Source: Bacteroidales bacterium (GTDB lineage Bacteria; Bacteroidota; Bacteroidia; Bacteroidales; WCHB1-69). Taken from it: a stretch of DNA of 64,000 bases. Position numbers and translations under genes: made by a program. The notes beneath the pieces were generated by a model. That model did not search any database and was not told where the DNA came from. It saw nothing but the letters and a program-made list of their open reading frames with translations. The stretch is taken from assembly GCA_045616665.1 (NCBI GenBank), contig JAZLHE010000057.1:1898-65897 (forward strand). Reading direction: 5' to 3'. How positions within the stretch are numbered: the stretch's first letter is position 1; each line of letters begins with the position of its first letter. Positions 1-13,136 of the stretch are shown here, one piece after another.

Positions 1-866
1 ATCTCAAGCACCACCTCTGCCTTGGGATGCCTTATGTAATAGAGGCAGGAGGCGTGCTCCGGCACCACGTTGGGGGCCTGGCCGCCGTTGTCTATTATAT
101 AATGTATGCGGCAGTCGGTGGGGACGTGCTCGCGCATCAGATTCATCATATAGTCGAACGCCTCCACGGCATCGAGCGCGGAACGTCCGTTCCAGGGCGA
201 AACCGAAGCGTGTGACGGCTTGCCGGTAAAAGAGAAGCGCACCCGCACGTTGGCAAGCCCGGTGGCCATACTCACCGAATTGTGATTGGAGGGATGCCAG
301 TCGAAGAATGCGTCGCAGCCGTCGAATACGCCCGCCTTGGTCATATAGGCCTTTCCTCCGCCACCCTCCTCGGCAGGGCATCCGAAATACTTCACCGTGC
401 CCTTATGCCCCTCGGCAAGCCATTTGGAGATGGCCACGGCAGCCGCAGCCGGGCCGGTAGCGATGAGATTGTGGCCGCAGCCGTGACCGGCAGCCCCCTC
501 CACACGCGGGCAGGGGTACGGCACCGTATCCTGCGACATCCCGGGCAGGGCGTCGAACTCGGCGAGCAGACCGATTACCGGAGAGCCTTCGCCGAAAGTG
601 GCCACAAATGCGGTGGGAATTTCGGCCACACCCATCTCAATTTTGAACCCGTTGGCCTCAAGATGGTCCGCAAGTGCCCTGGAACTTTTGTATTCCAGAT
701 AGCCAGGCTCGGCGAACTGATGAATCTGCTTGTGCAGAGCATCATAAACCTCAAAACTCTCATCAAGATATTTCATCCCGACGGTTTTGGTGAAATCGGT
801 TTTCTTTTTTGCCGTTGCGCTCAAGCAGACCGCCAGCGCAAGAATCGTGATTATCGTCTTCTTCAT
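1..866 (-). CDS. M20 family metallo-amidohydrolase/peptidase (AbgB-like), N-terminal ~288 aa only; continues beyond left edge
   Basis: Absent from the ORF track because no stop lies inside the window. My translation of the minus strand from ATG 866-864 gives MKKTIITILALAVCLSATAKKK (signal peptide), then GHGCGHNLIATG, KYFGCPAEEGGGGKAYM, DWHPSNHNSV, GRSALDAVEAF and RIHYIIDNGGQAPNVVPEHA. These are typical M20D/AbgB motifs. Track ORFs 282..914(+) and 4..381(-) are shadow frames. Confidence 0.8.
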   Translation of the reverse strand, partial: MKKTIITILALAVCLSATAKKKTDFTKTVGMKYLDESFEVYDALHKQIHQFAEPGYLEYKSSRALADHLEANGFKIEMGVAEIPTAFVATFGEGSPVIGLLAEFDALPGMSQDTVPYPCPRVEGAAGHGCGHNLIATGPAAAAVAISKWLAEGHKGTVKYFGCPAEEGGGGKAYMTKAGVFDGCDAFFDWHPSNHNSVSMATGLANVRVRFSFTGKPSHASVSPWNGRSALDAVEAFDYMMNLMREHVPTDCRIHYIIDNGGQAPNVVPEHASCLYYIRHPKAEVVLE

Positions 867-873
867 ACCATTC

Positions 874-906
874 AAAAAAAGGAGGGCGGCCGAACAGCCG
901 TCCTCC
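874..906 (-). terminator. Rho-independent terminator downstream of mutB
   Basis: The arms GGAGGGCGG (881-889) and CCGTCCTCC (898-906) form a 9-bp stem with one non-Watson-Crick position. The A-run 874-880 gives a U-run after the hairpin on the minus strand. Confidence 0.6.
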
Positions 907-939
907 AAATTTAGTAAATAATTCGAGAATCTGTACCGA

Positions 940-3093
940 TTATTCGAATCTCTGATTGAGGATTTCCATAATCTTGATAGCTGCGGTGGCAACGGGGGTA
1001 CCGGGGCCGAAGATTGCCATAGCGCCGTCACGGTAGAGTTCGTCGTAATCCTGTGCAGGGATAACTCCGCCAACAATCACTGCGATGTCCTCGCGGCCGA
1101 GCTTCTTGAGCTCTGCTATGATCTGCGGAACGAGTGTCTTGTGGCCTGCAGCAAGTGAAGATACGCCCACTACGTGAACGTCATTCTCCACAGCCTGCTT
1201 CGCAGCCTCTTCGGGAGTCTGGAACAGAGGTCCCATATCCACGTCGAAACCGCAGTCGGCGTAGCCGGTGGCTACAACCTTGGCTCCGCGGTCGTGACCG
1301 TCCTGGCCGAGTTTTGCAATCATAATACGAGGCTGGCGGCCTTCCTTCTTAGCGAATTCGGCAACCATCTTCCTGGCCTCTTCGAACTGTGCGTTGTTCT
1401 TGACTTCTGCAGAATATACACCTGTGTTCATACGGATAACTGCTTTATAACGTCCAACTACCTTTTCGCAAGCATAGGAGATTTCTCCGAGGGTTGCGCG
1501 AACCTTTGCAGCCTCAACTGCGAGTTCGAGCAGGTTGCCGCTCTTGGTTTCGACAGCCTTGGTGATTGCCTCGAGGGCAGCCTGAACCTTGGCCTCGTCG
1601 CGAGAAGCGCGCAGAGCCTTGAGACGTGCAATCTGGCTTTCGCGAACCTTGGTGTTGTCCACGTCGAGAATCTCGATGGGATCTTCGTGGTCAAGACGAT
1701 ATTCGTTGATACCGATAATCTTGTCGTTGCCCGAGTCGATGCGAGCCTGCTTGCGTGCAGCGGCCTCCTCGATGCGGAGCTTGGGGATGCCGGTTTCGAT
1801 GGCCTTTGCCATACCGCCGAGCTTCTCCACCTCCTCGATATGCTCCCACGCCTTGTGTGCGAGTTCGTTGGTCAGGCTCTCAACATAGTAGGAACCTGCC
1901 CAGGGGTCGATGCTCTTGCATACCTTGGTCTCTTCCTGGATGTAAATCTGGGTATTGCGGGCAATACGTGCGGAGAAGTCGGTAGGCAATGCAATGGCTT
2001 CGTCCAAAGCGTTGGTGTGCAATGACTGGGTATGTCCCAGTGCGGCACCCATTGCTTCAACGCAGGTACGGGTAACGTTGTTAAATGGATCTTGTTCAGT
2101 GAGAGACCAGCCGGAAGTCTGGCAGTGGGTTCTCAAAGCTAAAGATTTAGGATTTTTAGGATTGAATTGTTTAACAATCTTAGCCCAGAGCAAACGGGCA
2201 GCGCGCATCTTGGCGATTTCCATAAAGTGGTTCATGCCAATACCCCAGAAGAAGGACAAACGTGGTGCGAAGTCATCGATATTCATACCGGCATTGATAC
2301 CTGCGCGCAAATATTCCAAACCATCGGCCAAAGTGTAGGCTAATTCGATGTCGCAGGTGGCACCGGCTTCCTGCATGTGGTAACCCGAAATGGAAATGGA
2401 ATTGAATTTCGGCATATTCTTTGAAGTGAATTCAAAGATGTCGGCAATAATCTTCATAGAAGGAAGTGGCGGGTAAATATAGGTATTACGCACCATAAAT
2501 TCCTTCAAAATATCATTTTGGATAGTACCTGTCAATTGTTCCATAGGAACGCCCTGTTCTTCGGCGGCCACGATGTAGAAAGCCAGAATTGGCATCACGG
2601 CACCGTTCATCGTCATAGAGACGGACATTTTGTCCAATGGGATCTGATCGAACAGGATTTTCATATCTAAGATTGAATCTACGGCAACACCGGCTTTACC
2701 AACGTCACCGACGACTCTTGGATGGTCGGAGTCATAACCGCGGTGGGTCGCCAAGTCAAAAGCGATGGACAGACCTTTTTGACCGGCGGCCAAGTTGCGG
2801 CGGTAGAAGGCGTTAGACTCTTCGGCAGTAGAGAAACCCGCATATTGGCGGATGGTCCACGGCTTGTTGACATACATCGTTGAATAAGGTCCACGCAAAT
2901 AAGGCGGAATACCGGCGGCATAGTTCAAATGTTCCATACCGGCGAGGTCGTCTTTGCCATACACGGGCTTTACGGGAATCTGCTCGGCAGTCAGCCACGA
3001 GGTGTCAATATTGTTTTCTTTGGCCCATTCTTCAAAACTTTGTTGTTTTTCGGGCTTTTTCTTGAAATCTACTTTACTGAAATCAGGACGCAT
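940..3093 (-). CDS. mutB: Methylmalonyl-CoA mutase, large (catalytic, B12-binding) subunit
   Basis: 717 aa. The N-terminal mutase barrel carries [37 protein letters not shown]. The C-terminal cobalamin-binding domain carries [25 protein letters not shown] (DxHxxG type). Confidence 0.93.
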
Positions 3094-3127
3094 AATGCAG
3101 TTTTTTGTTATTGTTTATTTCAATCTG

Positions 3128-3135
3128 CAAAAGTA
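3128..3135 (-). promoter_or_regulatory. Bacteroidota -7 promoter box (TAnnTTTG) for mutB
   Basis: The minus strand reads TACTTTTG, about 35 nt upstream of the mutB ATG (3093). Confidence 0.5.
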
Positions 3136-3179
3136 ATATTTTTTTATGAAAAAAGAAAGAGAATAATTAGGAAGAGATT

Positions 3180-4271
3180 TTATTTTCCACTTTTCCGTCT
3201 ATTGCACTCGCGACATAGCATTTGGCAGTTGTCGGCCGTGGTTTTGCCTCCTTCGTGCCACGGCGTGATGTGGTCGGCCTCCATCTGATTCAGTTCGAAA
3301 TGTTCGTGGCACTCGGCGCAAATTCCCTCTTGTGCTTCATAAGCAGCCAATTTCTGAGCATCGGTAAAGGCACGGATGGAAAGGAATCTCTCCTTGCGCG
3401 TCAGAACGTAGGGATAGATGCCCGTTTTCTTCGTTACGTCATCGTCTAAAATCAGTTTCTTGACCTCCTCATCCACCGCATTGCTGTCGATAACGTTATC
3501 TTTGAATTCCTTGTACAGCGCGCCCCAGTCAATGCCCTTCATGATTTTCTTGCGTTCCTTGGTTGGCTGAAACGAGGTCTCTATCCACGTAACGACTGAC
3601 TGGAAAAACTGCCACAAAGCCGCGGCATTGGCGTCGTGCTGGTGATTGGACATATAAACTTCTATGTTGCCGTCCGAGATCCAAGAGATGGCCGTCTCCA
3701 GATAGTCCTGCCGGATGGCGGAGCCGTTGAGGTAGTCTGAGGCGATTTTGGCGGCCACGCAGCCGGGTTTGCTGAAGTAGCGCTTGGCATCGCTTACCCA
3801 AGCACCCGCATACACGGCGTTGCGCAGCTCCTGCTCCGTCAACTCTTCTCCCGCGATGTTGATGGTCTTGAACCACTTGAGTTTCTCGCTGTCGGTGCCG
3901 CTGCAGATATAGACTTGCAGCTCGTAGTCGAGAATCTGCTGTTGTTCGTCGGGTTGCAGGTTGTGAAAATAGCGGAACATATAGGCAAAGTCGCCATTCA
4001 CATACTGACAGATGCTGATGGTGCGCTGCTGTCCGTCGATGATTTCGTAAGTGCCGTCGTCGCGCACGGCCCAGTACATCACGTTGAGCGGAAAACCTTG
4101 CGTGAGCGTGTCGATGACGGCATCGCGCTGTTTTTCCTTATAGACAAACTCGCGTTGGTAAGGCGGGCGCACATCAAGTCGGCCGCCGTAGGCGCGTACG
4201 CCGTTTTCGGCATTGTCCTCGTAACCTTGCGTAAGGTCGCGGACGGTAATCTTGTGTAGTTCTATTTGCAT
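3180..4271 (-). CDS. DUF262 (ParB/GmrSD-N-like) domain fused to a C-terminal HNH endonuclease; candidate modification-sensing/type IV-like nuclease
   Basis: 363 aa. The N-terminal region has RPPYQREFVY and IIDGQQRTISI (the DGQQR motif of DUF262/GmrSD_N). The C-terminal region has CAECHEHF..ADHITPWHEGGKTTADNCQMLCRECNRRK (HNH with flanking Cys pairs). Confidence 0.8.
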   Translation of the reverse strand: MQIELHKITVRDLTQGYEDNAENGVRAYGGRLDVRPPYQREFVYKEKQRDAVIDTLTQGFPLNVMYWAVRDDGTYEIIDGQQRTISICQYVNGDFAYMFRYFHNLQPDEQQQILDYELQVYICSGTDSEKLKWFKTINIAGEELTEQELRNAVYAGAWVSDAKRYFSKPGCVAAKIASDYLNGSAIRQDYLETAISWISDGNIEVYMSNHQHDANAAALWQFFQSVVTWIETSFQPTKERKKIMKGIDWGALYKEFKDNVIDSNAVDEEVKKLILDDDVTKKTGIYPYVLTRKERFLSIRAFTDAQKLAAYEAQEGICAECHEHFELNQMEADHITPWHEGGKTTADNCQMLCRECNRRKSGK

Positions 4272-4309
4272 ATTGCTTGTTTGTTGTTTTTGATGATTTT
4301 TATTTCTTG

Positions 4310-4576
4310 GGCGGCCCGGCTCCTTACGTCGCCGTCACGCTTTCCAGGGGTTCCGTACAGGTAGAGACGCGGCACGCCACGCCTCTACCTGTACCGCCTC
4401 CGGCGCCCTTCCAATCGTTGCCGCGATGCTTCGTGGCAAGTTCTTCCGCGCTGCCACGGTCCTGCAGGCTGACTTGCAGCCATCCCCAGGTTGCGCCCTT
4501 CATTTCATTACGGGCTTACCTGGGGTTACTGAGGTTTTGTCCCTCTGGGACTGCTTAAGGTACGGCTTCGCCGTAA
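4310..4576 (-). ncRNA. Unclassified GC-rich structured element (candidate ncRNA / structured 5-prime leader of the DUF262-HNH gene)
   Basis: No credible CDS lies here. It carries six perfect local helices (4561-4575; 4539-4551; 4484-4491/4518-4525; 4467-4481; 4432-4438/4452-4458; 4355-4394). The 4355-4394 hairpin extends from 12 to 18 bp only on the minus strand, through two G-U pairs. A hand count gives 39/60 G+C at 4381-4440. Confidence 0.4.
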
Positions 4577-4610
4577 TATTTTTTATGAAGTACCACCATT
4601 TTTTTATTTC

Positions 4611-5663
4611 TTATTCTCTTAATTTCTTAATTGTTGTGTTGTATTCTATTTCGCCCTCTGCGGCCAACGGCAATGTCTCTTCCTGCCGTGCGTATTGAAT
4701 GGCTGGTTTGCGGCGGCGGATGAGGATACGGGAAAATTTTTCTTTCCCATTAAGTATAGGTTTCGCTAAATCATACTCGCTATCGCAACCATGATTCAAA
4801 ATTCCAATAATTTCAAATTGTTCGGGATTATATTTATCTAAAAATGTTACAGGAACGCCCATGAGTCCATCATAATCGTATGGAATATTTGCGGTAGGGC
4901 AACATTCTATAGCATCAAAATTATCGTATTTGGGATATTCTATAGGTGAATATGCCTTATACAAGACCAAATCTTCATGCCGTTTACTGATTTCCAAATT
5001 TGTAAACCAATTGACACCCGAAACACGAATCATTCCAGCCCGATGGTCACCAGCAGATGCCGTATCTTCATATTTGCTAATAAAATGTCCTGCCCCTCCT
5101 TTAAATCCATAGCCCAACCAAAGTTTGTTTTCCTTGACCAAAGGAAATATTTCTTTATAATGAATTGCGTTTTGATGTCCTATGATTATAAACTTCTTCT
5201 CATATTCAATCAATTGCGCCACATATTCCCTAAAGAGTGAAAACGGTGGATTAGTCACGACAACATCCGCTTGTTTGAGCAGTTCGATACATTCTTTTGA
5301 GCGAAAATCGCCGTCGCCTTCAAAATAGTTGATGCCGATTTCATCGGGATCGGGAACGCGGTTGTTGTTTTTATCGCCGTTGTACTCCAACCAAATGGCT
5401 CGTTCCGAATCATTCTGCGAAAACAAGTCCCGTTCCTGGTTCTTGTAGCAGGTGGTAATGAGTTTTTTTAGTCCTAATTTTTCAAAATTGTAGCTGAAGT
5501 AGTGAAAGAAATTGCTGATTCTTGGGTCGTCGCAGTTGCAAAGCACCACTTTGTCCTTGAAATGCTCCTTGTAGTGTTTCAGTTCGTTTTCAATATCCAC
5601 AAGCTGCGTGTAAAACTCGTCTTTTTTGGCGTTTTTTGCCTGATTTAGGTTTTTGTTGGCCAT
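4611..5663 (-). CDS. EcoRI-like (PF13651-type) N6-adenine DNA methyltransferase
   Basis: The N-terminus MANKNLNQAKNAKKDEFYTQLVDIENEL is characteristic of this family. The catalytic motif IV is VVTNPPFSLF (NPPF). I trimmed the start to ATG 5663 because the track start at 5693 is a TTG. Confidence 0.8.
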   Translation of the reverse strand: MANKNLNQAKNAKKDEFYTQLVDIENELKHYKEHFKDKVVLCNCDDPRISNFFHYFSYNFEKLGLKKLITTCYKNQERDLFSQNDSERAIWLEYNGDKNNNRVPDPDEIGINYFEGDGDFRSKECIELLKQADVVVTNPPFSLFREYVAQLIEYEKKFIIIGHQNAIHYKEIFPLVKENKLWLGYGFKGGAGHFISKYEDTASAGDHRAGMIRVSGVNWFTNLEISKRHEDLVLYKAYSPIEYPKYDNFDAIECCPTANIPYDYDGLMGVPVTFLDKYNPEQFEIIGILNHGCDSEYDLAKPILNGKEKFSRILIRRRKPAIQYARQEETLPLAAEGEIEYNTTIKKLRE

Positions 5664-5905
5664 ACGATTGATAGTTTTTTGCAATGCTATCAATCAGTGT
5701 TAACGGATAAAAAATACGTGGGCTTTCTTATCCGTTCGACAGGTGTCTACCAAACCCCCACAAAGAAATAAGCAGTGTCCACGTATACGTGAACATTAAC
5801 CTTATTAACTCTTTGTAGAAGGTTTGACACCTACTAAATTATTTCAGTAGTTCAAATGTTGTTTGGTAGACTTCGTCGAACGTGAAATAATAGCTAATGC
5901 GTTAA
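5664..5905 (-). promoter_or_regulatory. Long structured intercistronic leader upstream of the methyltransferase
   Basis: An outer bipartite helix 5733-5740/5875-5882 plus 5745-5754/5862-5871 encloses helix 5760-5765/5811-5816, hairpin 5777-5794 and hairpin 5831-5850. Next comes the 9-bp hairpin 5702-5710/5728-5736, which overlaps the outer helix. A 9-bp hairpin 5666-5674/5687-5695 ends 2 nt before the ATG. Two mismatches become G-U pairs only on the minus strand. Confidence 0.45.
5878..5902 (-). repeat. Copy A of a 21-24 nt direct repeat (GAAYGTGAA(A)TAATAGCTAATGCGT on the + strand)
   Basis: gaacgtgaaataatagctaatgcgt. It lies between the DUF1016 gene and the methyltransferase gene and matches 7139-7162 apart from one base change and one extra A. 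Confidence 0.7.
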
Positions 5906-5975
5906 GTTATAATATGTTATTTAAAATTTCTTTTTCCTGTTTTTCTGTTATTTTTGTTTTGTAAAGATAATATTT

Positions 5976-7067
5976 TTATGTGTGTTCTGTCAGATATTGT
6001 TGAGCAATACTAATGGCCTTGTTTAATTTATCGATAAACCACTGCTTATCGGGAAGATATGTCAGAAATTGAGCAACTTTGATGTTTTCTTCGTCAAGCA
6101 TCATCAGTTCAATATGTTCGGTGTTTCCTTCACTGCATAAAAGAAGCCCGATAGGTTTCTCTTCGCCAGATTGCATCTCATATCTCTGCAAATATTTGAG
6201 ATAAAGTTCCATCTGTCCTTTGTATTCAGGTTTGAATTTGCCCAATTTCAAGTCAATAGCAACCAGCCTTTTCAGTTTTCGATGATAAAAAAGAAGATCC
6301 AAATAATAATCAATACTGTCAATGGACATCCTTTTTTGACGTTCTAAGAAAGCAAAACCCTGGCCTAATTCCAAAATAAAGTTTTCCAACTGGCTGACAA
6401 TGGCATTTTCAAGTTCTTTTTCAGAGAAGATTCCTGAAAGTCCTAAAAAATCCAAGACGTACGAACTTTTGAATACAACATCCGGAGTTATGATTTCATC
6501 ATTAAGTTTCGTTAATTGCTCTGAAATTTCCGTTTCAGATTTTGTGGCAATCATAGAACGTTCGTAAAGCATAGTATCTTGCTTCTGTCGCAAAACTCTC
6601 AAACTCCAATGCTCCGTCAAACACATTTGCTGATAAAACAGTCGTTTTGTAGTCTCTTCAATGGAAGCTAATTCAACGAAATGACTCCAGCTCAATGTTT
6701 GCGACAGTGTTGCAAACATTGACACGTCGGGATATTCGCGGGCAACTTTTACCATTCTCGTCAGTGCGGAGTATGTATAGCCCTTCCCGAATTTTTCTGT
6801 TAATCTTTTCGACAATGTCGCAAGAATTTGCCCTCCATATTGAGAATAGGTTTCATAACGCACCTGCGTGGTAATATAGTTGCCGATACTCCAATAGAGA
6901 CGGCTTATTTCAGCGTTTAACGAAACAGCAACTTTATGGCTCGTTTGTGCAATCAATTGAACGATTCCTTGAAATAAAGAATCGCTGTTTGCCACATCCG
7001 ACCGCACTTTACTTGTTGCATCGCCCAATGCTTCTATATTTGTATTCTGTACCTTCATTGTCTTCAA
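5976..7067 (-). CDS. DUF1016 / YhcG-family PD-(D/E)XK nuclease
   Basis: 363 aa. It has the N-terminal DUF1016 helical region (LYWSIGNYI..YGGQILATLSKRL..GKGYTYSALTRM) and a C-terminal nuclease core (DLLFYHRKLKRLVAIDLKLGKFKPEYKGQMELYL, D..(D/E)xK-like). Confidence 0.8.
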   Translation of the reverse strand: MKTMKVQNTNIEALGDATSKVRSDVANSDSLFQGIVQLIAQTSHKVAVSLNAEISRLYWSIGNYITTQVRYETYSQYGGQILATLSKRLTEKFGKGYTYSALTRMVKVAREYPDVSMFATLSQTLSWSHFVELASIEETTKRLFYQQMCLTEHWSLRVLRQKQDTMLYERSMIATKSETEISEQLTKLNDEIITPDVVFKSSYVLDFLGLSGIFSEKELENAIVSQLENFILELGQGFAFLERQKRMSIDSIDYYLDLLFYHRKLKRLVAIDLKLGKFKPEYKGQMELYLKYLQRYEMQSGEEKPIGLLLCSEGNTEHIELMMLDEENIKVAQFLTYLPDKQWFIDKLNKAISIAQQYLTEHT

Positions 7068-7138
7068 GTTAGATGTTTAAACGTCAAATCTGTTTTATTA
7101 TCTCGTTAGTAATGTCCATTTCCGACGCTTTTTGTTTT

Positions 7139-7162
7139 GAATGTGAATAATAGCTAATGCGT
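7139..7162 (-). repeat. Copy B of the 21-24 nt direct repeat, in the 5-prime UTR of the DUF1016 gene
   Basis: gaatgtgaataatagctaatgcgt. It lies 72-95 nt upstream of the DUF1016 ATG and downstream of the -7 box at 7215-7222. Confidence 0.7.
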
Positions 7163-7214
7163 GATGTGATTTCCCTTTATGTTTTCAATTTTTATATGAA
7201 TGTCATTAATTCTG

Positions 7215-7222
7215 CAAATATA
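7215..7222 (-). promoter_or_regulatory. -7 promoter box (TATATTTG) for the DUF1016-MTase-DUF262/HNH cassette
   Basis: This is the only TAnnTTTG match I found on the minus strand between sufS and the cassette. I saw no such box in the two internal spacers, which suggests a single transcript. Confidence 0.45.
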
Positions 7223-7279
7223 CTTATTATTTCAATTATTGAGAGTATAATAATTCATTGATGAAAAATTCGAGAAATC

Positions 7280-8482
7280 TTACTCCAGCATCATTTTGGC
7301 ACGGCAGACGGCTTCGTACAGACTGTCGATTTCCTCTTTGGTGTTGTATAGGGCGAAGGAGGCGCGCACGGTTCCGGGAATGCCGAAGTGGTCCATAATG
7401 GGTTGGGTGCAGTGGTGCCCTGTACGCACGGCAATGCCCAATTTGTCGATGATGGCACCGATGTCTGACGGATGAATGTTGCCAATATTGAAGGAAATAA
7501 TGGCCGCCTTTTGTGCCGAAGTGCCATAGATTTTCAACCCTTGAATGGAAAAAAGTCGTTCCGTGGCGTACGACAGCAGTTCGTGTTCGTATTGGGCAAT
7601 GTTTTCAATTCCGATTTGCAAAATGTACTCAATGGCGCTTCGGAGTCCCATCACGTCGCCCACGCTGGGCGTTCCCGCTTCAAACTTGAAAGGGAGGTCG
7701 TTGTAAGTGGTTTTGGCGAAAGTAACCTGCTTGATCATCTCGCCGCCGCCCTGGTAAGGTTTCATTTGGTTGAGCCATTCCTCTTTGCCGTACATCACGC
7801 CAATGCCCATTGGCGCATACATTTTATGTCCTGAAAAGCAGTAAAAATCACAATCAAGGTCTTGAACATCTACTTTGCAGTGCGAAACGGCCTGGGCTCC
7901 GTCAACGAGTACGGGAATATGATGTTGGTGAGCCATCTCGATGACTTTCTTCACGGGATTGATAGTGCCGAGTGTGTTGGAAACGTGACTAATAGCAACG
8001 ATTTTGGTCTTATCGGATAGGAGCTCTGACATTTTATCTAAGCAGAGTTCGCCATTTTCGTCAAAAGGAATCACTTTCAATATACAACCCCGATCTTCAC
8101 ACAAAAACTGCCAAGGCACGATGTTGGCGTGATGTTCCATTTCGCTGATGACGATTTCGTCGCCTTCGTGCAAGAAAGTCCGACCAAAGGAAGAGGCCAC
8201 CAAGTTGATGGAATCAGTAGCGCCGCGAGTGAAAATCACTTCGTAGTGATGCTTGGCATTGATGAATTGCCGAACGCTCTCGCGAGCCACTTCAAATTCG
8301 TCGGTGGCTTTTTGGCTGAGGTAATGCACGCCGCGATGAATGTTGCTGTTGATTTGCGTATAGTAGTTGTTGAGGGCGTCAATCACTACCTGCGGTTTCT
8401 GCGTTGTGGCAGCATTGTCCAAATATACCAAAGGATGTTTGTATATTTGTTGATTTAGAATGCAAAAATCTTCTCTATTCAT
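7280..8482 (-). CDS. sufS: Cysteine desulfurase, SufS-type (class V aminotransferase)
   Basis: Motifs seen: VYLDNAATTQKP, SGHKMYAPMGIGVMYG (PLP lysine) and RTGHHCTQP (active-site Cys loop). I trimmed the start to ATG 8482 (MNREDF). It overlaps the upstream stop as ATGAATAG. Confidence 0.9.
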   Translation of the reverse strand: MNREDFCILNQQIYKHPLVYLDNAATTQKPQVVIDALNNYYTQINSNIHRGVHYLSQKATDEFEVARESVRQFINAKHHYEVIFTRGATDSINLVASSFGRTFLHEGDEIVISEMEHHANIVPWQFLCEDRGCILKVIPFDENGELCLDKMSELLSDKTKIVAISHVSNTLGTINPVKKVIEMAHQHHIPVLVDGAQAVSHCKVDVQDLDCDFYCFSGHKMYAPMGIGVMYGKEEWLNQMKPYQGGGEMIKQVTFAKTTYNDLPFKFEAGTPSVGDVMGLRSAIEYILQIGIENIAQYEHELLSYATERLFSIQGLKIYGTSAQKAAIISFNIGNIHPSDIGAIIDKLGIAVRTGHHCTQPIMDHFGIPGTVRASFALYNTKEEIDSLYEAVCRAKMMLE

Positions 8483-8990
8483 CGTCTTCTTCGTCTTGAT
8501 TATCAGTTGTTTCTTCGTAATCTGTGTAGGAGTTATTGTTTTTGTTGAACAAGGCATCCTTGAGCAGCATGCCGTATAAAACGATAATGATTACAGTGGT
8601 GAAGATGGCAAATCCGTTCATTGTCAAGGCGCCCTTAATGACGAGGTTGCACATAACGAATAATGCGATTTGGGCGATGGTATATAAATGAAAGCCGACT
8701 TTGTTGAGTTTCAGCATCAAGGCTGCTCCGATAATGGCCAAGGCGTAGCACAATGATAAAAGCAAGTATTGCCAAGAGGGAACTTCAAGCATTTGTTCAA
8801 TTTGGCCGATCACTTCCTGCGGCATTCCCATTGATTTGTATGTTTCAAGGGCTATCGGCATATAGCTGGCAGAAAAGGAAAGGGTAAAATAAGTCAAAAA
8901 GGAAAATCCTGAACCGATGAAAGTTAAGATGGCCAAAATTAAGAGCCAGGGGGATCTTTGCGGTCTTTCGTTTTCTTTAAATGGATTCAT
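8475..8990 (-). CDS. Small integral membrane protein with acidic C-terminal tail, function unknown
   Basis: 171 aa. I see about 4 hydrophobic helices and the tail YTDYEETTDNQDEEDDE. It is translationally coupled between tilS and sufS. Confidence 0.55.
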   Translation of the reverse strand: MNPFKENERPQRSPWLLILAILTFIGSGFSFLTYFTLSFSASYMPIALETYKSMGMPQEVIGQIEQMLEVPSWQYLLLSLCYALAIIGAALMLKLNKVGFHLYTIAQIALFVMCNLVIKGALTMNGFAIFTTVIIIVLYGMLLKDALFNKNNNSYTDYEETTDNQDEEDDE

Positions 8991-10296
8991 TGTATTTTAT
9001 TTTTATGTAATTAGTAGTTTTATGGTCGATTTTGAAGCGGTCGTCACTACGGAAGCCTACCACCCAAATTATTTTTTCTCCATCGCATAGCAGCCATATT
9101 TTGTCTTTTTTCAGAATGTCGATTTTTTGATTGGTGAAAAAATCGCTGATTTTTTTGCTTCCTTTCATTCCGAAGGGAAAGAAAACATCGCCTGGTTTCC
9201 AGTGTCGAAGGACAAGTGGAAAAGTTATTTTTGTTTCATCAACATAGATAATGTTGGGATTGTTTTCGAATATAGGTTTTTGACTGATAGAACATTGGCA
9301 AGTTTGAAATCCGTACCGACTTAACTCTTCCCAGGAATTAATTGTTATTGAATGATGAATATTTGAATTTAAATGACTAATAATCAAATTATTCCTGTCT
9401 TTAACCAGAATATGGGTCGGTGAAAGGAATTTTTTGCCGGACAAGCCCTGTTCGCAGTGAATAATTTGCCTTACAGTATCTTCATTAAAGTTATATTCGC
9501 GAAGTATTTCGTTCAAAATCAATACTTTATCGTCCAACAAAGATAATTTTTCTATCGGAATGATAATTTCATTGCCTTGAATTTGGATCAAATCCGCGTT
9601 AATTTTGTCAAGTTGGTGTTGATAGAATTGGTATTGACGCTGAAGGAGTTGGATATTATGGGAGAAAGTTTGAATGAGTTGAGGATTGACTTCTTCCAAT
9701 TTAGGAATGACAGACAGTCTGACTTTATTGCGGTGGAATGTGTCGGAGAAATTGCTGCTGTCGTTACGAAAGGCGATGTTTTTTTCAGTGGCGAACTGCC
9801 GAATTTGTCGGGCGGAAAAGGGTAGGAGCGGGCGGAGGATTTTTCCGTTTTTTTCAGGAATTCCGCATAGACCTTTTAATCCGGTTCCGCGTGACAAATT
9901 GAGGAGAACGGTTTCGGCATTGTCGTTGGCGTGGTGTGCGGTAACGAGGTAGTCGTAGTCGGAGCCGATTTCCTGAAACCAGGCGTATCTGAGGTTTCTT
10001 GCCACCATTTCTATGGACTCGCCTGTTTTTTCTTGTTCTTCGATGGTGTTGAATTCTTTCTCAAAGTAAGTTACACCATAAGTTTTTGCCATTTTCCTGA
10101 CGAACACCATATCTTGATTGGATTCTTCTCCGCGGAGATGAAAATTGCAGTGGGCGATGGCAAAATGGAGTCGGCAATGGGCGAATAAATAGGCCAATAC
10201 GGAAGAATCTGCACCTCCACTTACTGCGAGCAAGAAAGTTTTGGATGGTGCGGTTTCAACTAATTCGCTGATATGCCGTTTGAATAACTCTTCCAT
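8977..10296 (-). CDS. tilS: tRNA(Ile)-lysidine synthetase
   Basis: 439 aa. PP-loop AVSGGADSSVLAYL is present, together with the family-typical length and C-terminal domain. Confidence 0.9.
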   Translation of the reverse strand: MEELFKRHISELVETAPSKTFLLAVSGGADSSVLAYLFAHCRLHFAIAHCNFHLRGEESNQDMVFVRKMAKTYGVTYFEKEFNTIEEQEKTGESIEMVARNLRYAWFQEIGSDYDYLVTAHHANDNAETVLLNLSRGTGLKGLCGIPEKNGKILRPLLPFSARQIRQFATEKNIAFRNDSSNFSDTFHRNKVRLSVIPKLEEVNPQLIQTFSHNIQLLQRQYQFYQHQLDKINADLIQIQGNEIIIPIEKLSLLDDKVLILNEILREYNFNEDTVRQIIHCEQGLSGKKFLSPTHILVKDRNNLIISHLNSNIHHSITINSWEELSRYGFQTCQCSISQKPIFENNPNIIYVDETKITFPLVLRHWKPGDVFFPFGMKGSKKISDFFTNQKIDILKKDKIWLLCDGEKIIWVVGFRSDDRFKIDHKTTNYIKIKYNESI

Positions 10297-10336
10297 AATA
10301 CGGCTACAAAATTACAAAATTATCTGCTTGATGAAT

Positions 10337-10374
10337 AAAAAAAGGATGACTAAAACTTCAGCCATCCTTTTTTT
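10337..10374 (-). terminator. Bidirectional-looking hairpin terminator downstream of nrdJ
   Basis: AAAAAAAGGATG..loop..CATCCTTTTTTT. The A-run gives a U-run on the minus strand. Confidence 0.55.
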
Positions 10375-10403
10375 CATTAACCCTAATACAAATTATGAAA
10401 TCA

Positions 10404-13136
10404 TCAGGAGCCACATTTTGAGTAACCGCAGTTAGAGCAGCAAAGGCAGCCTTCCTTGAATTCCATCGTGTTTTCCTGTCCGCATTTAGGACAGATGGCA
10501 CCCTTGGCCTTTGTTCCGTCTTTAATGAATTTTTTCAAGGCACGGATTACGCCGTTTTTCCAAGAGTTGATGGATTCTTCTCTAAAGTTCAGTCCTGAGA
10601 TGATATTGATAATGCTTTCCATAGGAATTTCGTGTCTTAACAAGGCAGAAATCATTTTAGCATAGTTCCAAAATTCTGGATTAAAAGTACGGGACAAACC
10701 TGCCATAAGAACTTCATAACCATCTTTATCGTAGTATTGGAAGTCGTATGTCTTTGTTCCGTCTTCGTGACGTCTTTTGATGATGTTTCCGTTTTCAACC
10801 CATTTAGGAATCACGAAGCGGTCGTTTTCGGTTTTACCGGTAAAGATTTCGTAAGGGCGATTGTCACGCAAGCCGACGAAGGCGATCCAGTCTTCGCTGT
10901 TGTTTTTGAATCTGACGATTTCGGCGGGCAATACGGTTGGACGTTTGTAGTTTTTAGGCTTTTCGCTTGGTTTATTTTCGCTTTTTTTGTCTGAAATGGT
11001 ATTGAGGACGCCATCACGAGAACCTTCGCGATAAACCGTCATACCTTTGCACCCCACTTCCCAAGCTTTAACGTATAAACCGGCTACGGTTTCCTCACTG
11101 GTATTTTCAGGGAGGTTGATGGTAACGGAAATGGAGTGATCTACCCATTTTTGTACGGCCCCCTGCAGTTCAACCTTTTTGAGGTAATCGGTGTCGGCGG
11201 CGGTAGATTTGTAGTAAGGAGACTTTTGTACCAAAGTCATAATGTCATCTTTGCTCATTGATGTCAATTGTTCTTTGCTGATACCTTGAACGGCAGCCCA
11301 ATCAATGAATTTCGGATGGAATACCATATATTCTTCAAAGAGGTCACCCACCACGTCGTGAACCGTTTTACGTTGGTTCATATCGTTGGGGTTGACTTTT
11401 CTTCTTCTCATATAAACCACGTTGAATGCGGGTTCGATACCGGAAGTGGTTTGAGTACAGATACTTACGCTTCCAGTAGGAGCGATGGTGAGCAAAGCGA
11501 TATTTCTACGGCCGTAACGAATCATATCTTCGTAAAGTTTGCCGTCGGCTTCTTTTAAGCGCAGTACGAAAGGATTGTGGCTTTCCTTAATGCAACTGTA
11601 AACAGGAAAAGCACCTCTTTCGCGAGCCATCGTTACGGAAGAACGGTAGGCAGCCAAAGCCAGTTGTTTGTGGACTTCGGTAGAGAAGGCATTGCCGTGT
11701 TCGGAACCGTATTGAATGTTGAGGGCGGCCAGCATATCGCCTTCAGCGGTGATGCCGAGACCGGTGCGGCGGCCTTTCAAGGATTGGCGTTTGATTTTAT
11801 TCCATAATTCCAATTCCACGCGTTTTACTTCATCGGTTTCGGGATCGCTTTTAACCTTTTCGATGATTTTGTCGATTTTTTCCAATTCCAAATCGATAAT
11901 GTCGTCCATAAGGCGTTGGGCATATTGGACGTGCTGTCTGAAGCGGGGCATATTGAAACTTGCCTGTTCGGTGAAAGGATTGTCCACGTAGCTGTACAGG
12001 TTCATGGCAATGAGTCGGCAGCTGTCGTAAGGGCAGAGTGGAATTTCACCGCAGGGATTGGTGGAAACGGTTTTGAATCCTTCGTCTGCATAGCAATCTG
12101 GAATGGCTTCTTTATGAATGGTATCCCAGAAAAGAACACCAGGTTCAGCCGATTTCCAAGCATTGTGGGTGATTTTCTGCCACAATTTGGAAGCATCAAT
12201 TTCCTGTTTGAATTTTGGATTAGGAGAATCGATAGGGTATTGTTGGACGTAAGGTTTGCCGCTTTTCACGCATTCCATAAATTCGTCATCGATTTTTACG
12301 GAAACATTGGCTCCGGTGATTTTGCCTTCTGTCATTTTGGCGTCGATGAATTTTTCTGCGTCTGGGTGTTTGATGGAGATAGAGAGCATCAAGGCACCGC
12401 GGCGACCGTCCTGAGCCACTTCGCGGGTCGAGTTGGAATATCTTTCCATAAAGGGCACCACGCCTGTGGAGGAGATGGCACAGTTTTGCACTTTGCTTCC
12501 CGAAGGACGGATGTGTGACAAGTCGTGTCCCACGCCACCACGACGCTTCATAAGCTGGACTTGCTCTTCGTCCATCTTCATAATGCCACCGTATGAATCG
12601 GAACGGGCATCGTTGCCAATGACAAAGCAGTTGGACAAAGATGAGATTTGAAAGTCGTTACCGATGCCTGCCATAGGACTTCCCTGGGGAATAATATATT
12701 TGAAGTGTTCGAACAAAGAATAGATCAATTCTTCGCTCATTGGGTTTGCATATTTTTTCTCAATGCGGGCAAACTCACGTGCCAGACGACGGTGCATTTC
12801 GTCCGGATTGCTTTCCAATAATTTTCCCGCATCGTTTTTCAGTGCGTATTTGTCAATCCATACGCCTGCGGCCAATTCGTCGCCATCGAAATAGTCAACT
12901 ACTTCCGGAAAAATTTCATTTTTCTCGTAAGTGGTCATTGCGTGCTCCTCCTGAGGAGCCATAACTTCATTTTTTTCGTCAGTCATATTTTCCATAACAA
13001 GCTCCGCCAAATCATCAAATTGTATTTCGTCTAACTGATTTTCGCGAGATTTCAGCAATTCCTGTTGCTGAGAAATGTTTTGACTTTCAGTCTCCGAAAT
13101 TTTTAATTCATCAAACAGCGATAAATTTTTGTCCAT
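10404..13136 (-). CDS. nrdJ: Class II (adenosylcobalamin-dependent) ribonucleotide reductase
   Basis: 910 aa. Motifs seen: NPCGEIPL (active-site Cys loop), TIAPTGS and the C-terminal zinc ribbon CPKCGQ..CCSNCGYSKC. It has an acidic ~65-aa N-terminal extension. A -7 box lies at 13166-13173. Confidence 0.9.
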   Translation of the reverse strand: MDKNLSLFDELKISETESQNISQQQELLKSRENQLDEIQFDDLAELVMENMTDEKNEVMAPQEEHAMTTYEKNEIFPEVVDYFDGDELAAGVWIDKYALKNDAGKLLESNPDEMHRRLAREFARIEKKYANPMSEELIYSLFEHFKYIIPQGSPMAGIGNDFQISSLSNCFVIGNDARSDSYGGIMKMDEEQVQLMKRRGGVGHDLSHIRPSGSKVQNCAISSTGVVPFMERYSNSTREVAQDGRRGALMLSISIKHPDAEKFIDAKMTEGKITGANVSVKIDDEFMECVKSGKPYVQQYPIDSPNPKFKQEIDASKLWQKITHNAWKSAEPGVLFWDTIHKEAIPDCYADEGFKTVSTNPCGEIPLCPYDSCRLIAMNLYSYVDNPFTEQASFNMPRFRQHVQYAQRLMDDIIDLELEKIDKIIEKVKSDPETDEVKRVELELWNKIKRQSLKGRRTGLGITAEGDMLAALNIQYGSEHGNAFSTEVHKQLALAAYRSSVTMARERGAFPVYSCIKESHNPFVLRLKEADGKLYEDMIRYGRRNIALLTIAPTGSVSICTQTTSGIEPAFNVVYMRRRKVNPNDMNQRKTVHDVVGDLFEEYMVFHPKFIDWAAVQGISKEQLTSMSKDDIMTLVQKSPYYKSTAADTDYLKKVELQGAVQKWVDHSISVTINLPENTSEETVAGLYVKAWEVGCKGMTVYREGSRDGVLNTISDKKSENKPSEKPKNYKRPTVLPAEIVRFKNNSEDWIAFVGLRDNRPYEIFTGKTENDRFVIPKWVENGNIIKRRHEDGTKTYDFQYYDKDGYEVLMAGLSRTFNPEFWNYAKMISALLRHEIPMESIINIISGLNFREESINSWKNGVIRALKKFIKDGTKAKGAICPKCGQENTMEFKEGCLCCSNCGYSKCGS

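Follow-up and report, generated by a model that had tools for sequence, protein, structure and literature searches.

A probable mobile restriction-modification operon pairing an EcoRI-family methylase with a DUF262-HNH nuclease, and its facultative DUF1016 cassette, in a Bacteroidales genome

The DNA analysed here, a 64,000-nucleotide stretch of contig JAZLHE010000057.1 from the Bacteroidales bacterium assembly GCA_045616665.1 (hereafter the window), carries three genes on its minus strand between a sufS-like class-V aminotransferase gene and the methylmalonyl-CoA mutase gene mutB. In the order of transcription these are a DUF1016/YhcG-family nuclease gene (5976-7067), a gene for an EcoRI-family N6-adenine DNA methyltransferase (4611-5663) and a gene for a nuclease that combines a DUF262 with an HNH domain (3180-4271). 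An earlier sequence-only reading had placed all three open reading frames (ORFs) correctly, and its domain calls as well as both flanking genes are borne out by Pfam. The same reading took the trio for a candidate defence module. Among relatives, however, it is the methylase and the DUF262-HNH nuclease that stay together, in about 77 of 80 loci, whereas a DUF1016 gene is found upstream of the methylase in 6 of 80, with 29-48% identity to the window copy. We think that the locus is probably a mobile restriction-modification (R-M) operon, composed of the EcoRI-family methylase and the DUF262-HNH nuclease and carrying a facultative DUF1016 cassette.

The methylase-nuclease pair

Relatives of the nuclease were collected by a scan that kept one genome per species (393), and 80 loci with their flanks were retained for neighbourhood counts; domains were called with Pfam profiles and defence genes with PADLOC models. 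The methylase gene lies immediately upstream of the DUF262-HNH gene, on the same strand, in the loci counted above, and the exceptions are contig ends. The gap between the two genes ranges from -100 to 1247 nt, overlaps or spacings of 1-30 nt being frequent. The genes flanking the pair fall into 233 unrelated clusters, and hence the pair moves as a module. It is present on plasmids of Chryseobacterium, Macrococcoides, Aeromonas, Gordonia, Variovorax, Enterococcus and Ligilactobacillus, where the two products are annotated solely as 'DUF262 domain-containing protein' and 'adenine-specific methyltransferase EcoRI family protein'. A Ligilactobacillus plasmid of 7.5 kb carries nothing but the pair besides rep and a MerR regulator, on a Gordonia plasmid the methylase and nuclease ORFs share 4 bp, and in Ruminococcus bromii the same pairing occupies a fixed chromosomal site. 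Its recurrent neighbours are toxin-antitoxin or defence genes, namely DUF3990, Fic, HepT, HigB/HigA and ParE. A second sample, comprising 80 further loci, was obtained with a 22-nt scan specific for the leader RNA described below; among its 55 loci with both leader and methylase, 50 have the nuclease as well, 4 are truncated loci and 1 lacks it. Locus L358 (3502-8000) has the leader and a methylase (69% identical) but, over more than 3 kb downstream, no DUF262-HNH gene, and may represent an orphan methylase descended from the module.

The window methylase (350 aa) starts at a conserved ATG at 5663, within an ORF that opens at a TTG codon (4611-5693), and matches the EcoRI_methylase profile PF13651 over positions 1-343 of 345 (E = 3.1e-134). 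The complete catalytic domain and the motif IV sequence NPPF, which characterise a Type II methyltransferase, are both in place, NPPF does not vary in the family, and the NPPF-bearing residues 136-150 have a column identity of 0.92. The protein is 50% identical to genuine M.EcoRI, whose gene adjoins that of the annotated R.EcoRI on small E. coli plasmids. Since M.EcoRI is 45-59% identical to the methylases that accompany DUF262-HNH nucleases, and these share 43-99% identity among themselves, M.EcoRI falls within the family's own divergence. The likeness to the EcoRI system (Type IIP) thus extends to the PF13651 methylase and to the two-gene format on small plasmids, but not to the nuclease: the gene of R.EcoRI, an EcoRI-family Type II endonuclease by annotation, lies upstream of the methylase gene, whereas the window nuclease has DUF262 and HNH domains and is encoded downstream. 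R.EcoRI is a PD-(D/E)XK enzyme.

The nuclease (363 aa) consists, according to Pfam, an AlphaFold model, Foldseek and PADLOC, of a DUF262 domain, a helical middle domain and a zinc-ribbon HNH domain. The GmrSD_N/DUF262 profile (PF03235) matches residues 34-154 (E = 4.8e-19) and the HNH profile (PF01844) residues 318-361 (E = 1.2e-13). The DGQQR motif is encoded by codons 79-83 (4037-4023); in 40 diverse members of the family D79 and G80 are at least 90% conserved, and Q81, Q82 and R83 are invariant. The HNH residues are C318/C321, D333-H334 (3275-3270), N348, C353/C356 and N357, and the family, which comprises 520 clusters at 50% identity (E below 1e-30), retains PPYQRxFVY, DGQQRT and the zinc-ribbon HNH signature CxxC...DH...N...CxxCN. 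The AlphaFold model, with a predicted local distance difference test (pLDDT) score of 86 and a predicted template modelling (pTM) score of 0.62, has no whole-chain match among solved structures in Foldseek. Its N-terminal domain resembles the ParB/Noc cytidine triphosphate (CTP)-binding domain and weakly BrxU, and its C-terminus resembles the HNH domains of Gme, McrA and Cas9, every one of these matches having E > 1e-3. Such an architecture is indeed unusual for a restriction enzyme, as the sequence-only reading had remarked. The assembly index has no entry with the window's own nuclease sequence.

A DUF262 domain with DGQQR is common to GmrSD, BrxU and SspE, and weak secondary PADLOC matches of the nuclease to NsnA, PD-T4-2_A and mREase_IV point in the same direction, namely to a Type IV or mark-sensing nuclease that is merely co-located with the methylase and is not protected by it. 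GmrSD, BrxU and SspE share with the window protein the N-terminal ParB/Srx-like DUF262 domain and a C-terminal nuclease of His-Me type. However, the window nuclease ends in a canonical zinc-ribbon HNH domain (PF01844) and has no match to DUF1524 (PF07510), and with 363 aa it is about half the size of these enzymes (587 residues in the BrxU chain 7p9k_A). GmrSD and BrxU also stand alone, with no cognate methyltransferase, and SspE partners phosphorothioation genes, whereas the window nuclease goes with a methylase gene; a stand-alone enzyme would not be expected to share an operon this consistently, and with overlapping ORFs, in different phyla. No ssp or dnd genes were identified among the recurrent neighbours, for which no ssp-specific search was made. 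We consider co-location with a Type IV enzyme very improbable.

The pair has, instead, the organisation of a Type II system, with separate, adjacent and co-inherited genes for a methyltransferase and an endonuclease. The PADLOC model REase_II (PDLC03418), a REBASE-derived Type II profile, matches the nuclease over residues 1-363 and profile positions 1-372 of 372 (E = 8.8e-137), and the model MTase_II (PDLC03297) matches the methylase (E = 1.1e-119). The pair is, hence, an already catalogued kind of system. The sequence-only reading had presented the locus as a candidate uncharacterised system and had itself named a PADLOC match as grounds for abandoning that claim, which, for the pair, these two models supply. 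The pair is a widespread and catalogued but apparently uncharacterised kind of R-M system.

Modes of restriction and the methylase target

On the reading that we prefer, a single promoter (7222-7215) would drive a transcript encoding the methylase and the downstream nuclease. The EcoRI-family methylase would mark host DNA with N6-methyladenine, and the DUF262-HNH nuclease, whose parts are a nucleotide-binding domain of ParB/Srx type, a helical middle domain and, as the predicted catalytic part, a zinc-ribbon HNH domain, would attack incoming unmarked DNA. The leader of about 240 nt would either mask or expose the stretch directly ahead of the methylase start codon, and the hairpin-rich intercistronic spacer would set the nuclease gene apart from the methylase gene. 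Together, leader and spacer would keep the methylase ahead of the nuclease, expression probably being graded in these two ways. The DUF1016 cassette would have landed between promoter and leader and would now be co-transcribed without being part of the core.

Several observations weigh against an autonomous pair of this kind. The nuclease is much more conserved than the methylase, with a median pairwise identity of 86% versus 66%, which is the reverse of the usual autonomous Type II pattern, and among locus pairs whose nucleases are at least 85% identical the methylases are less than 55% identical in 19%. The R. bromii methylase ORF contains an (ACAG)n tract (loci L287-L292, ~3560-3640) whose length differs by 0, 8, 28, 80 and 132 nt among six assemblies, and intact as well as split methylase ORFs stand beside an identical, intact nuclease gene; a classical R-M pair should not tolerate methylase OFF alleles beside an intact nuclease. 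To our knowledge, a nucleoside triphosphate (NTP)-binding DUF262 domain is not a Type II feature. In addition, site-avoidance statistics single out no target, a literature search found no paper characterising a DUF262-HNH Type II enzyme, and the two PADLOC papers do not state whether the REase_II profile rests on tested or putative REBASE entries. One of the R. bromii assemblies breaks at the (ACAG)n tract.

The alternative is that the nuclease depends on the methylase, much as in Type III systems: the methylase would recognise the target and recruit an NTP-gated DUF262-HNH cutter, so that switching the methylase OFF would also disarm the nuclease, and the R. bromii OFF alleles beside identical intact nuclease genes would be tolerable. 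In keeping with a specificity that resides in the methylase, the nuclease is evenly conserved along its length (column identity 0.75-0.99) and lacks any variable block, and methylase divergence is focused at residues ~181-210 and ~286-300 of an otherwise conserved scaffold. Judged from the locus-pair identities, methylase alleles are genuinely exchanged against a near-constant nuclease. In Fibrobacter intestinalis ATCC 43854 (locus L074) the orphaned 3' end of a second methylase (...NGKSKYARILVRRRQF; 7644-8000) lies in the methylase-nuclease gap and is the footprint of an allele replacement; the methylase gene of this locus also contains an in-frame G10 tract (7590-7599). The ParB/Noc-type CTP-binding fold of the N-terminal domain and its weak resemblance to BrxU would suit a nucleotide-gated enzyme. 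Type III mod-res systems share with the pair the methylase-first order, overlapping ORFs, a nuclease with a nucleotide-binding domain and, in the R. bromii lineage, a repeat tract in the methylase gene, but the pair has no helicase-type Res subunit and its methylase belongs to the EcoRI family and not to Type III Mod.

Much of this evidence can be read otherwise. M.EcoRI-family methylases act as independent monomers alongside the autonomous R.EcoRI, and the identities of methylases and nucleases across loci correlate weakly (r = 0.31), giving no signal of co-evolution. The OFF alleles might equally abolish translational coupling and thereby silence the nuclease, given the 11-nt overlap of the two ORFs, or they might reflect misassembly of the repeat. 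One protein in the 50%-identity library, P0263 (688 aa), carries EcoRI_methylase, DUF262 and HNH domains in one polypeptide and would favour a physical partnership; it could be either a genuine fusion of methylase and nuclease or an artefact of a frameshift over overlapping stop and start codons. We regard a methylase-dependent nuclease as a rather unlikely alternative to the autonomous R-M pair.

For the methylase target, homology to M.EcoRI makes GAATTC or a related AATT-core site the most likely candidate. GAATTC is no more than mildly depleted: its ratio of observed to expected occurrences (O/E) is 0.66-0.76 with the system and 0.93-0.96 without it, which corresponds to rank 13-34 of ~2000 hexamers and to z-scores of -2.1 to -2.9. 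An NdeI-like target, CATATG, was considered and rejected. It is the top differential hexamer (O/E 0.23 versus 0.59 in 80 control loci) and is absent from the window against 16 expected occurrences, but habitat-matched herbivore-gut controls are also depleted (O/E 0.29 versus 0.23), hence the depletion is a lineage effect. Avoidance of CATATG is common to herbivore-gut Bacteroidales (O/E 0.29). Over positions 1-64000, the window further avoids the palindromes CATG (O/E 0.18), CTAG (0.08) and GATC (0.42), and GTATAC and GTCGAC each occur once against 7 expected. Such avoidance points to other widespread restriction systems in that habitat.

The DUF1016 cassette and its junction repeats

The first gene of the window operon (5976-7067, minus strand) encodes a 363-aa protein of the PD-(D/E)XK nuclease family with the Pfam domains DUF1016_N (E = 6e-36) and YhcG_C (E = 6.1e-46). 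It matches the PADLOC single-gene candidate PDC-S02 (PDLC04807) at essentially full length (E = 1.4e-112; residues 25-358, profile positions 10-345 of 351). An obligate three-component defence system of a new type, made of DUF1016, methylase and DUF262-HNH nuclease, would account for the shared strand and the apparently single promoter, and for the enrichment of DUF1016 beside the pair (6/80 loci versus 0/80 controls; Fisher p = 0.028). This enrichment also agrees with the published one: DUF1016 is enriched beside R-M loci with an odds ratio of 17.4, examples being a Type I operon that contains it and a Type IIG gene that it precedes (PMC9881135). However, DUF1016 is missing from about 92% of the pair loci, and where present it is divergent and sometimes found in two or three tandem, mutually divergent copies. 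In other loci its position is taken by DUF3990, DUF3791, HepT, RhuM-like or AlbA_2-type genes, which are interchangeable with it, and its boundaries in the window coincide with cassette junction repeats. A new obligate three-gene system is, in our view, highly implausible.

The cassette boundaries are defined by two copies of a motif, (A/C)GCATTAGCTATTATT, in the window, one before DUF1016 (7162-7146; ACGCATTAGCTATTATT) and one at the start of the methylase leader (5902-5886). Copy 1 begins a stub of 44 nt (7119-7162) that corresponds to the first ~44 nt of another leader class and is 100% identical to positions 6376-6419 of locus L005, where it forms the start of a full leader; the stub is a truncated leader left upstream of the inserted cassette. 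The cassette itself (5888-7170, minus strand), running from junction repeat through gene to next junction repeat, is delimited by its DNA identity to locus L368 from a horse-gut metagenome-assembled genome, which amounts to 94.8% between window positions 7010-5888 and L368 positions 731-1849 and to 92.5% between 7170-7093 and 654-733. Homology between the two loci stops at the motif copies.

Upstream of copy 1, at a distance of 52 nt, lies the Bacteroidetes-type -7 promoter box TATATTTG (7222-7215, minus strand; consensus TAnnTTTG). The sequence-only reading had noted this box as the only one upstream of the first gene, with none in the internal spacers, and had proposed a single transcript on that basis. 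Indeed, neither spacer (5664-5975 and 4272-4610) contains a TAnnTTTG box on the gene strand, where the box recurs inside the ORF of the methylase (4923-4916) and at the promoter of mutB (3135-3128). In a survey of 68 related loci, 44 have a promoter box 44-91 nt upstream of the leader motif, and those without one at that spacing are the loci with same-strand accessory genes upstream. Because the 52-nt spacing in the window falls inside this range, the box at 7222-7215 is read as the probable promoter of the whole operon, and one transcript is likely. The normal spacing at copy 1, together with the end of homology at the motif copies, leads us to conclude, from the comparison of loci, that DUF1016 is a facultative passenger cassette inserted between operon promoter and leader and is probably co-transcribed with the pair.

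Arrays of two to four such cassettes are found in L368 (664-3929), L363 (3627-7135), L003 (2255-4540) and L073 (3823-6107). Their genes are of the DUF1016, RhuM-like or AlbA_2/ATPase type. A direct junction repeat of about 60 nt (...gaaaaagaaatttaaaataacatattataaNNtaacGCATTAGCTATTATtcacattcaaaacaaaaa...ATG) lies 20-40 nt ahead of each gene, and a full leader closes the arrays. As in integrons, promoterless genes are lined up downstream of one promoter and each is accompanied by a conserved element of about 60 nt. In contrast to integrons, the element is a direct repeat on the 5' side and not an attC-like palindrome, and no integrase is found near the four arrays; nor does the ORF listing contain an integrase or transposase within 3180-7279, as the sequence-only reading had already stated. 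The mechanism of cassette movement may be plain homologous recombination. The position of DUF1016 immediately upstream of an R-M unit, with co-transcription, recalls the Type I and Type IIG loci described before (PMC9881135), but the window differs in that its host operon is a Type II-like pair and in that the site of insertion and its junction repeats can be located precisely.

Leader RNA, intercistronic spacer and surroundings

Both non-coding spacers of the operon are long and structured, as had been claimed from the sequence: the one upstream of the methylase gene (5664-5975) measures 312 nt and has a fold z-score, relative to shuffled sequence, of -7.5, and the methylase-nuclease spacer (4272-4610) measures 339 nt with a z-score of -6.8. 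The former contains a structured leader RNA of ~239 nt (5664-5902, minus strand), which was aligned with related leaders (n = 53) and analysed for covariation by pair counting and with RNAalifold. It begins with the 5' motif (5902-5886), followed by a long helix (UCACGUUCGA at 5885-5876 with UCGAACGGA at 5739-5731), a central hairpin (~5794-5773) and a start-codon hairpin (GAUUGAUAG at 5695-5687 with CUAUCAAUC at 5674-5666) that ends 3 nt before the AUG at 5663. This architecture is conserved in ~65 loci. Two helices, at alignment columns 18-24/205-211 and 132-140/149-157, each have six pairs with double-sided changes, and 98% of helix cells are paired as compared with 28-44% when the partners are slid. 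Abundant G-U pairs indicate that the RNA is on the gene strand.

The 5' motif (GCUAUUA..UC) can also pair with GA.UGAUAGC just upstream of the start codon. The resulting helix between the 5' motif and GAUUGAUAGC is an alternative to the GAUUGAUAG:CUAUCAAUC hairpin, as it shares the 5' arm of that hairpin. The local hairpin with CUAUCAAUC ends 3-8 nt ahead of the AUG across leaders, and compensatory changes accompany the conservation of either pairing (96.4% and 98.5% of cells paired). That two helices at the start codon exclude each other suggests a translational switch. A small ORF does not explain the conservation, as the frames from a conserved internal AUG have 1-42 codons and encode unrelated peptides, and an invertible promoter upstream of the leader was likewise rejected, since flanking inverted repeats are missing and only back-to-back divergent -7 boxes are present. 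Rfam has no relevant match at E <= 1 in window positions 1-12000; over the whole window nothing reaches the gathering score, four loci of other leader classes are without a match at E <= 0.1, and a literature search found no RNA motif linked to EcoRI-family methylases. On viral contigs there were at least 120 matches to a 15-nt version of the motif, 80 of which were analysed; none has an extended leader or the genes nearby, and they look like chance matches.

The leader precedes other genes in 19 of the 80 further loci from the 22-nt scan, hence it is not specific to the methylase-nuclease system. These genes encode a Type I HsdM, a Type III Mod (in Bacteroides rodentium JCM 16496), a Dam-class methylase, five acyltransferase-3 proteins, MBOAT, GNAT and DUF4268 proteins. 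A leader of ~200-290 nt precedes unrelated genes in loci L294, L336, L349, L299, L332, L295 and L370, and further such loci are L318, L351, L372, L300, L365, L307 and L303. The leaders before unrelated genes have the 5' motif GCATTAGCTATTATTTCGCGTT and, in about half of them, the GATTGATAG hairpin ahead of the AUG. The leader thus has the look of an undescribed regulatory element that variable 'contingency-type' genes of Bacteroidales have in common.

The methylase-nuclease spacer (minus strand) begins with a shared element of ~105 nt (4587-4483) and contains an insertion of ~190 nt, the last 158 nt of which (4429-4272) match locus L001 at 99% and include a 19-bp stem with 89% complementarity (4394-4355). 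In related loci the gap is filled by a variable number of GC-rich hairpins. These were rejected as generic repeats of the repetitive extragenic palindromic (REP) type, because they are restricted to methylase-nuclease gaps, and they may act as an attenuator or as decoupling or stabilising elements. Whole genes are also found inside the gap, in L007/L009 (6878-7987), L031 (3123-4064), L008 (7415-7986) and L044 (7292-7978), with further insertions in L051, L054, L060 and L073, hence the intercistronic spacer is a second insertion hotspot. The inserted genes encode Fic proteins and small lipoproteins and, as identified by eye, a DUF4160/DUF2442-type pair and an IS200-like transposase. Taking the downstream flank and the gap together, the genes seen in other loci are Fic, ParE, HigBA, the DUF4160-type pair, the IS200-like transposase and lipoproteins.

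The nuclease gene of the window has a GC content of 0.53 and the methylase gene one of 0.40. The sequence-only reading had correctly noticed this contrast and had taken it as a sign of a mosaic origin; the same contrast is found over 75 loci (means of 0.39 for the methylase and 0.51 for the nuclease gene), so that it is a family-wide feature and does not argue for a local mosaic. Synteny of sufS and mutB is found in 0 of 80 mutB relatives, and so there is no empty site with which the insertion could be compared. Directly downstream of mutB, window positions 1-900 have a GC content of 59-65%, as against 32-57% across the remaining first 12 kb. The segment contains only ORFs of odd composition, and it has neither an Rfam match nor a tRNA.

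Viewed purely as defence, the locus is unremarkable, in that standard tools already detect the pair as a Type II R-M system and DUF1016 is known to accompany R-M loci. Its interest lies elsewhere. The nuclease family is large, extending from rumen Bacteroidales to R. bromii and to plasmids of several phyla, and its conservation calls into question the status of an autonomous Type II enzyme. The covarying leader, which has no Rfam counterpart and stands before several types of R-M methylases and before surface-modifying acyltransferases, would be a shared control element in gut Bacteroidales, and the motif-bounded cassettes offer a concrete structural explanation for DUF1016 and RhuM-like genes embedded in R-M operons. 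It is conceivable, though we think it improbable, that the DUF262-HNH protein is a methylase-dependent, nucleotide-gated nuclease and that, at the same time, the leader is a new riboregulator whose ~60-nt element serves as a site of cassette recombination and expression. If so, the pair would constitute a distinct R-M class, working in a Type III-like manner with Type II-like parts, the leader would be a riboregulator of contingency genes in gut Bacteroidales, encompassing Type I, II and III methylases and surface acyltransferases, and the 5' junction element would serve an integron-like array that captures DUF1016, RhuM-like and toxin genes.

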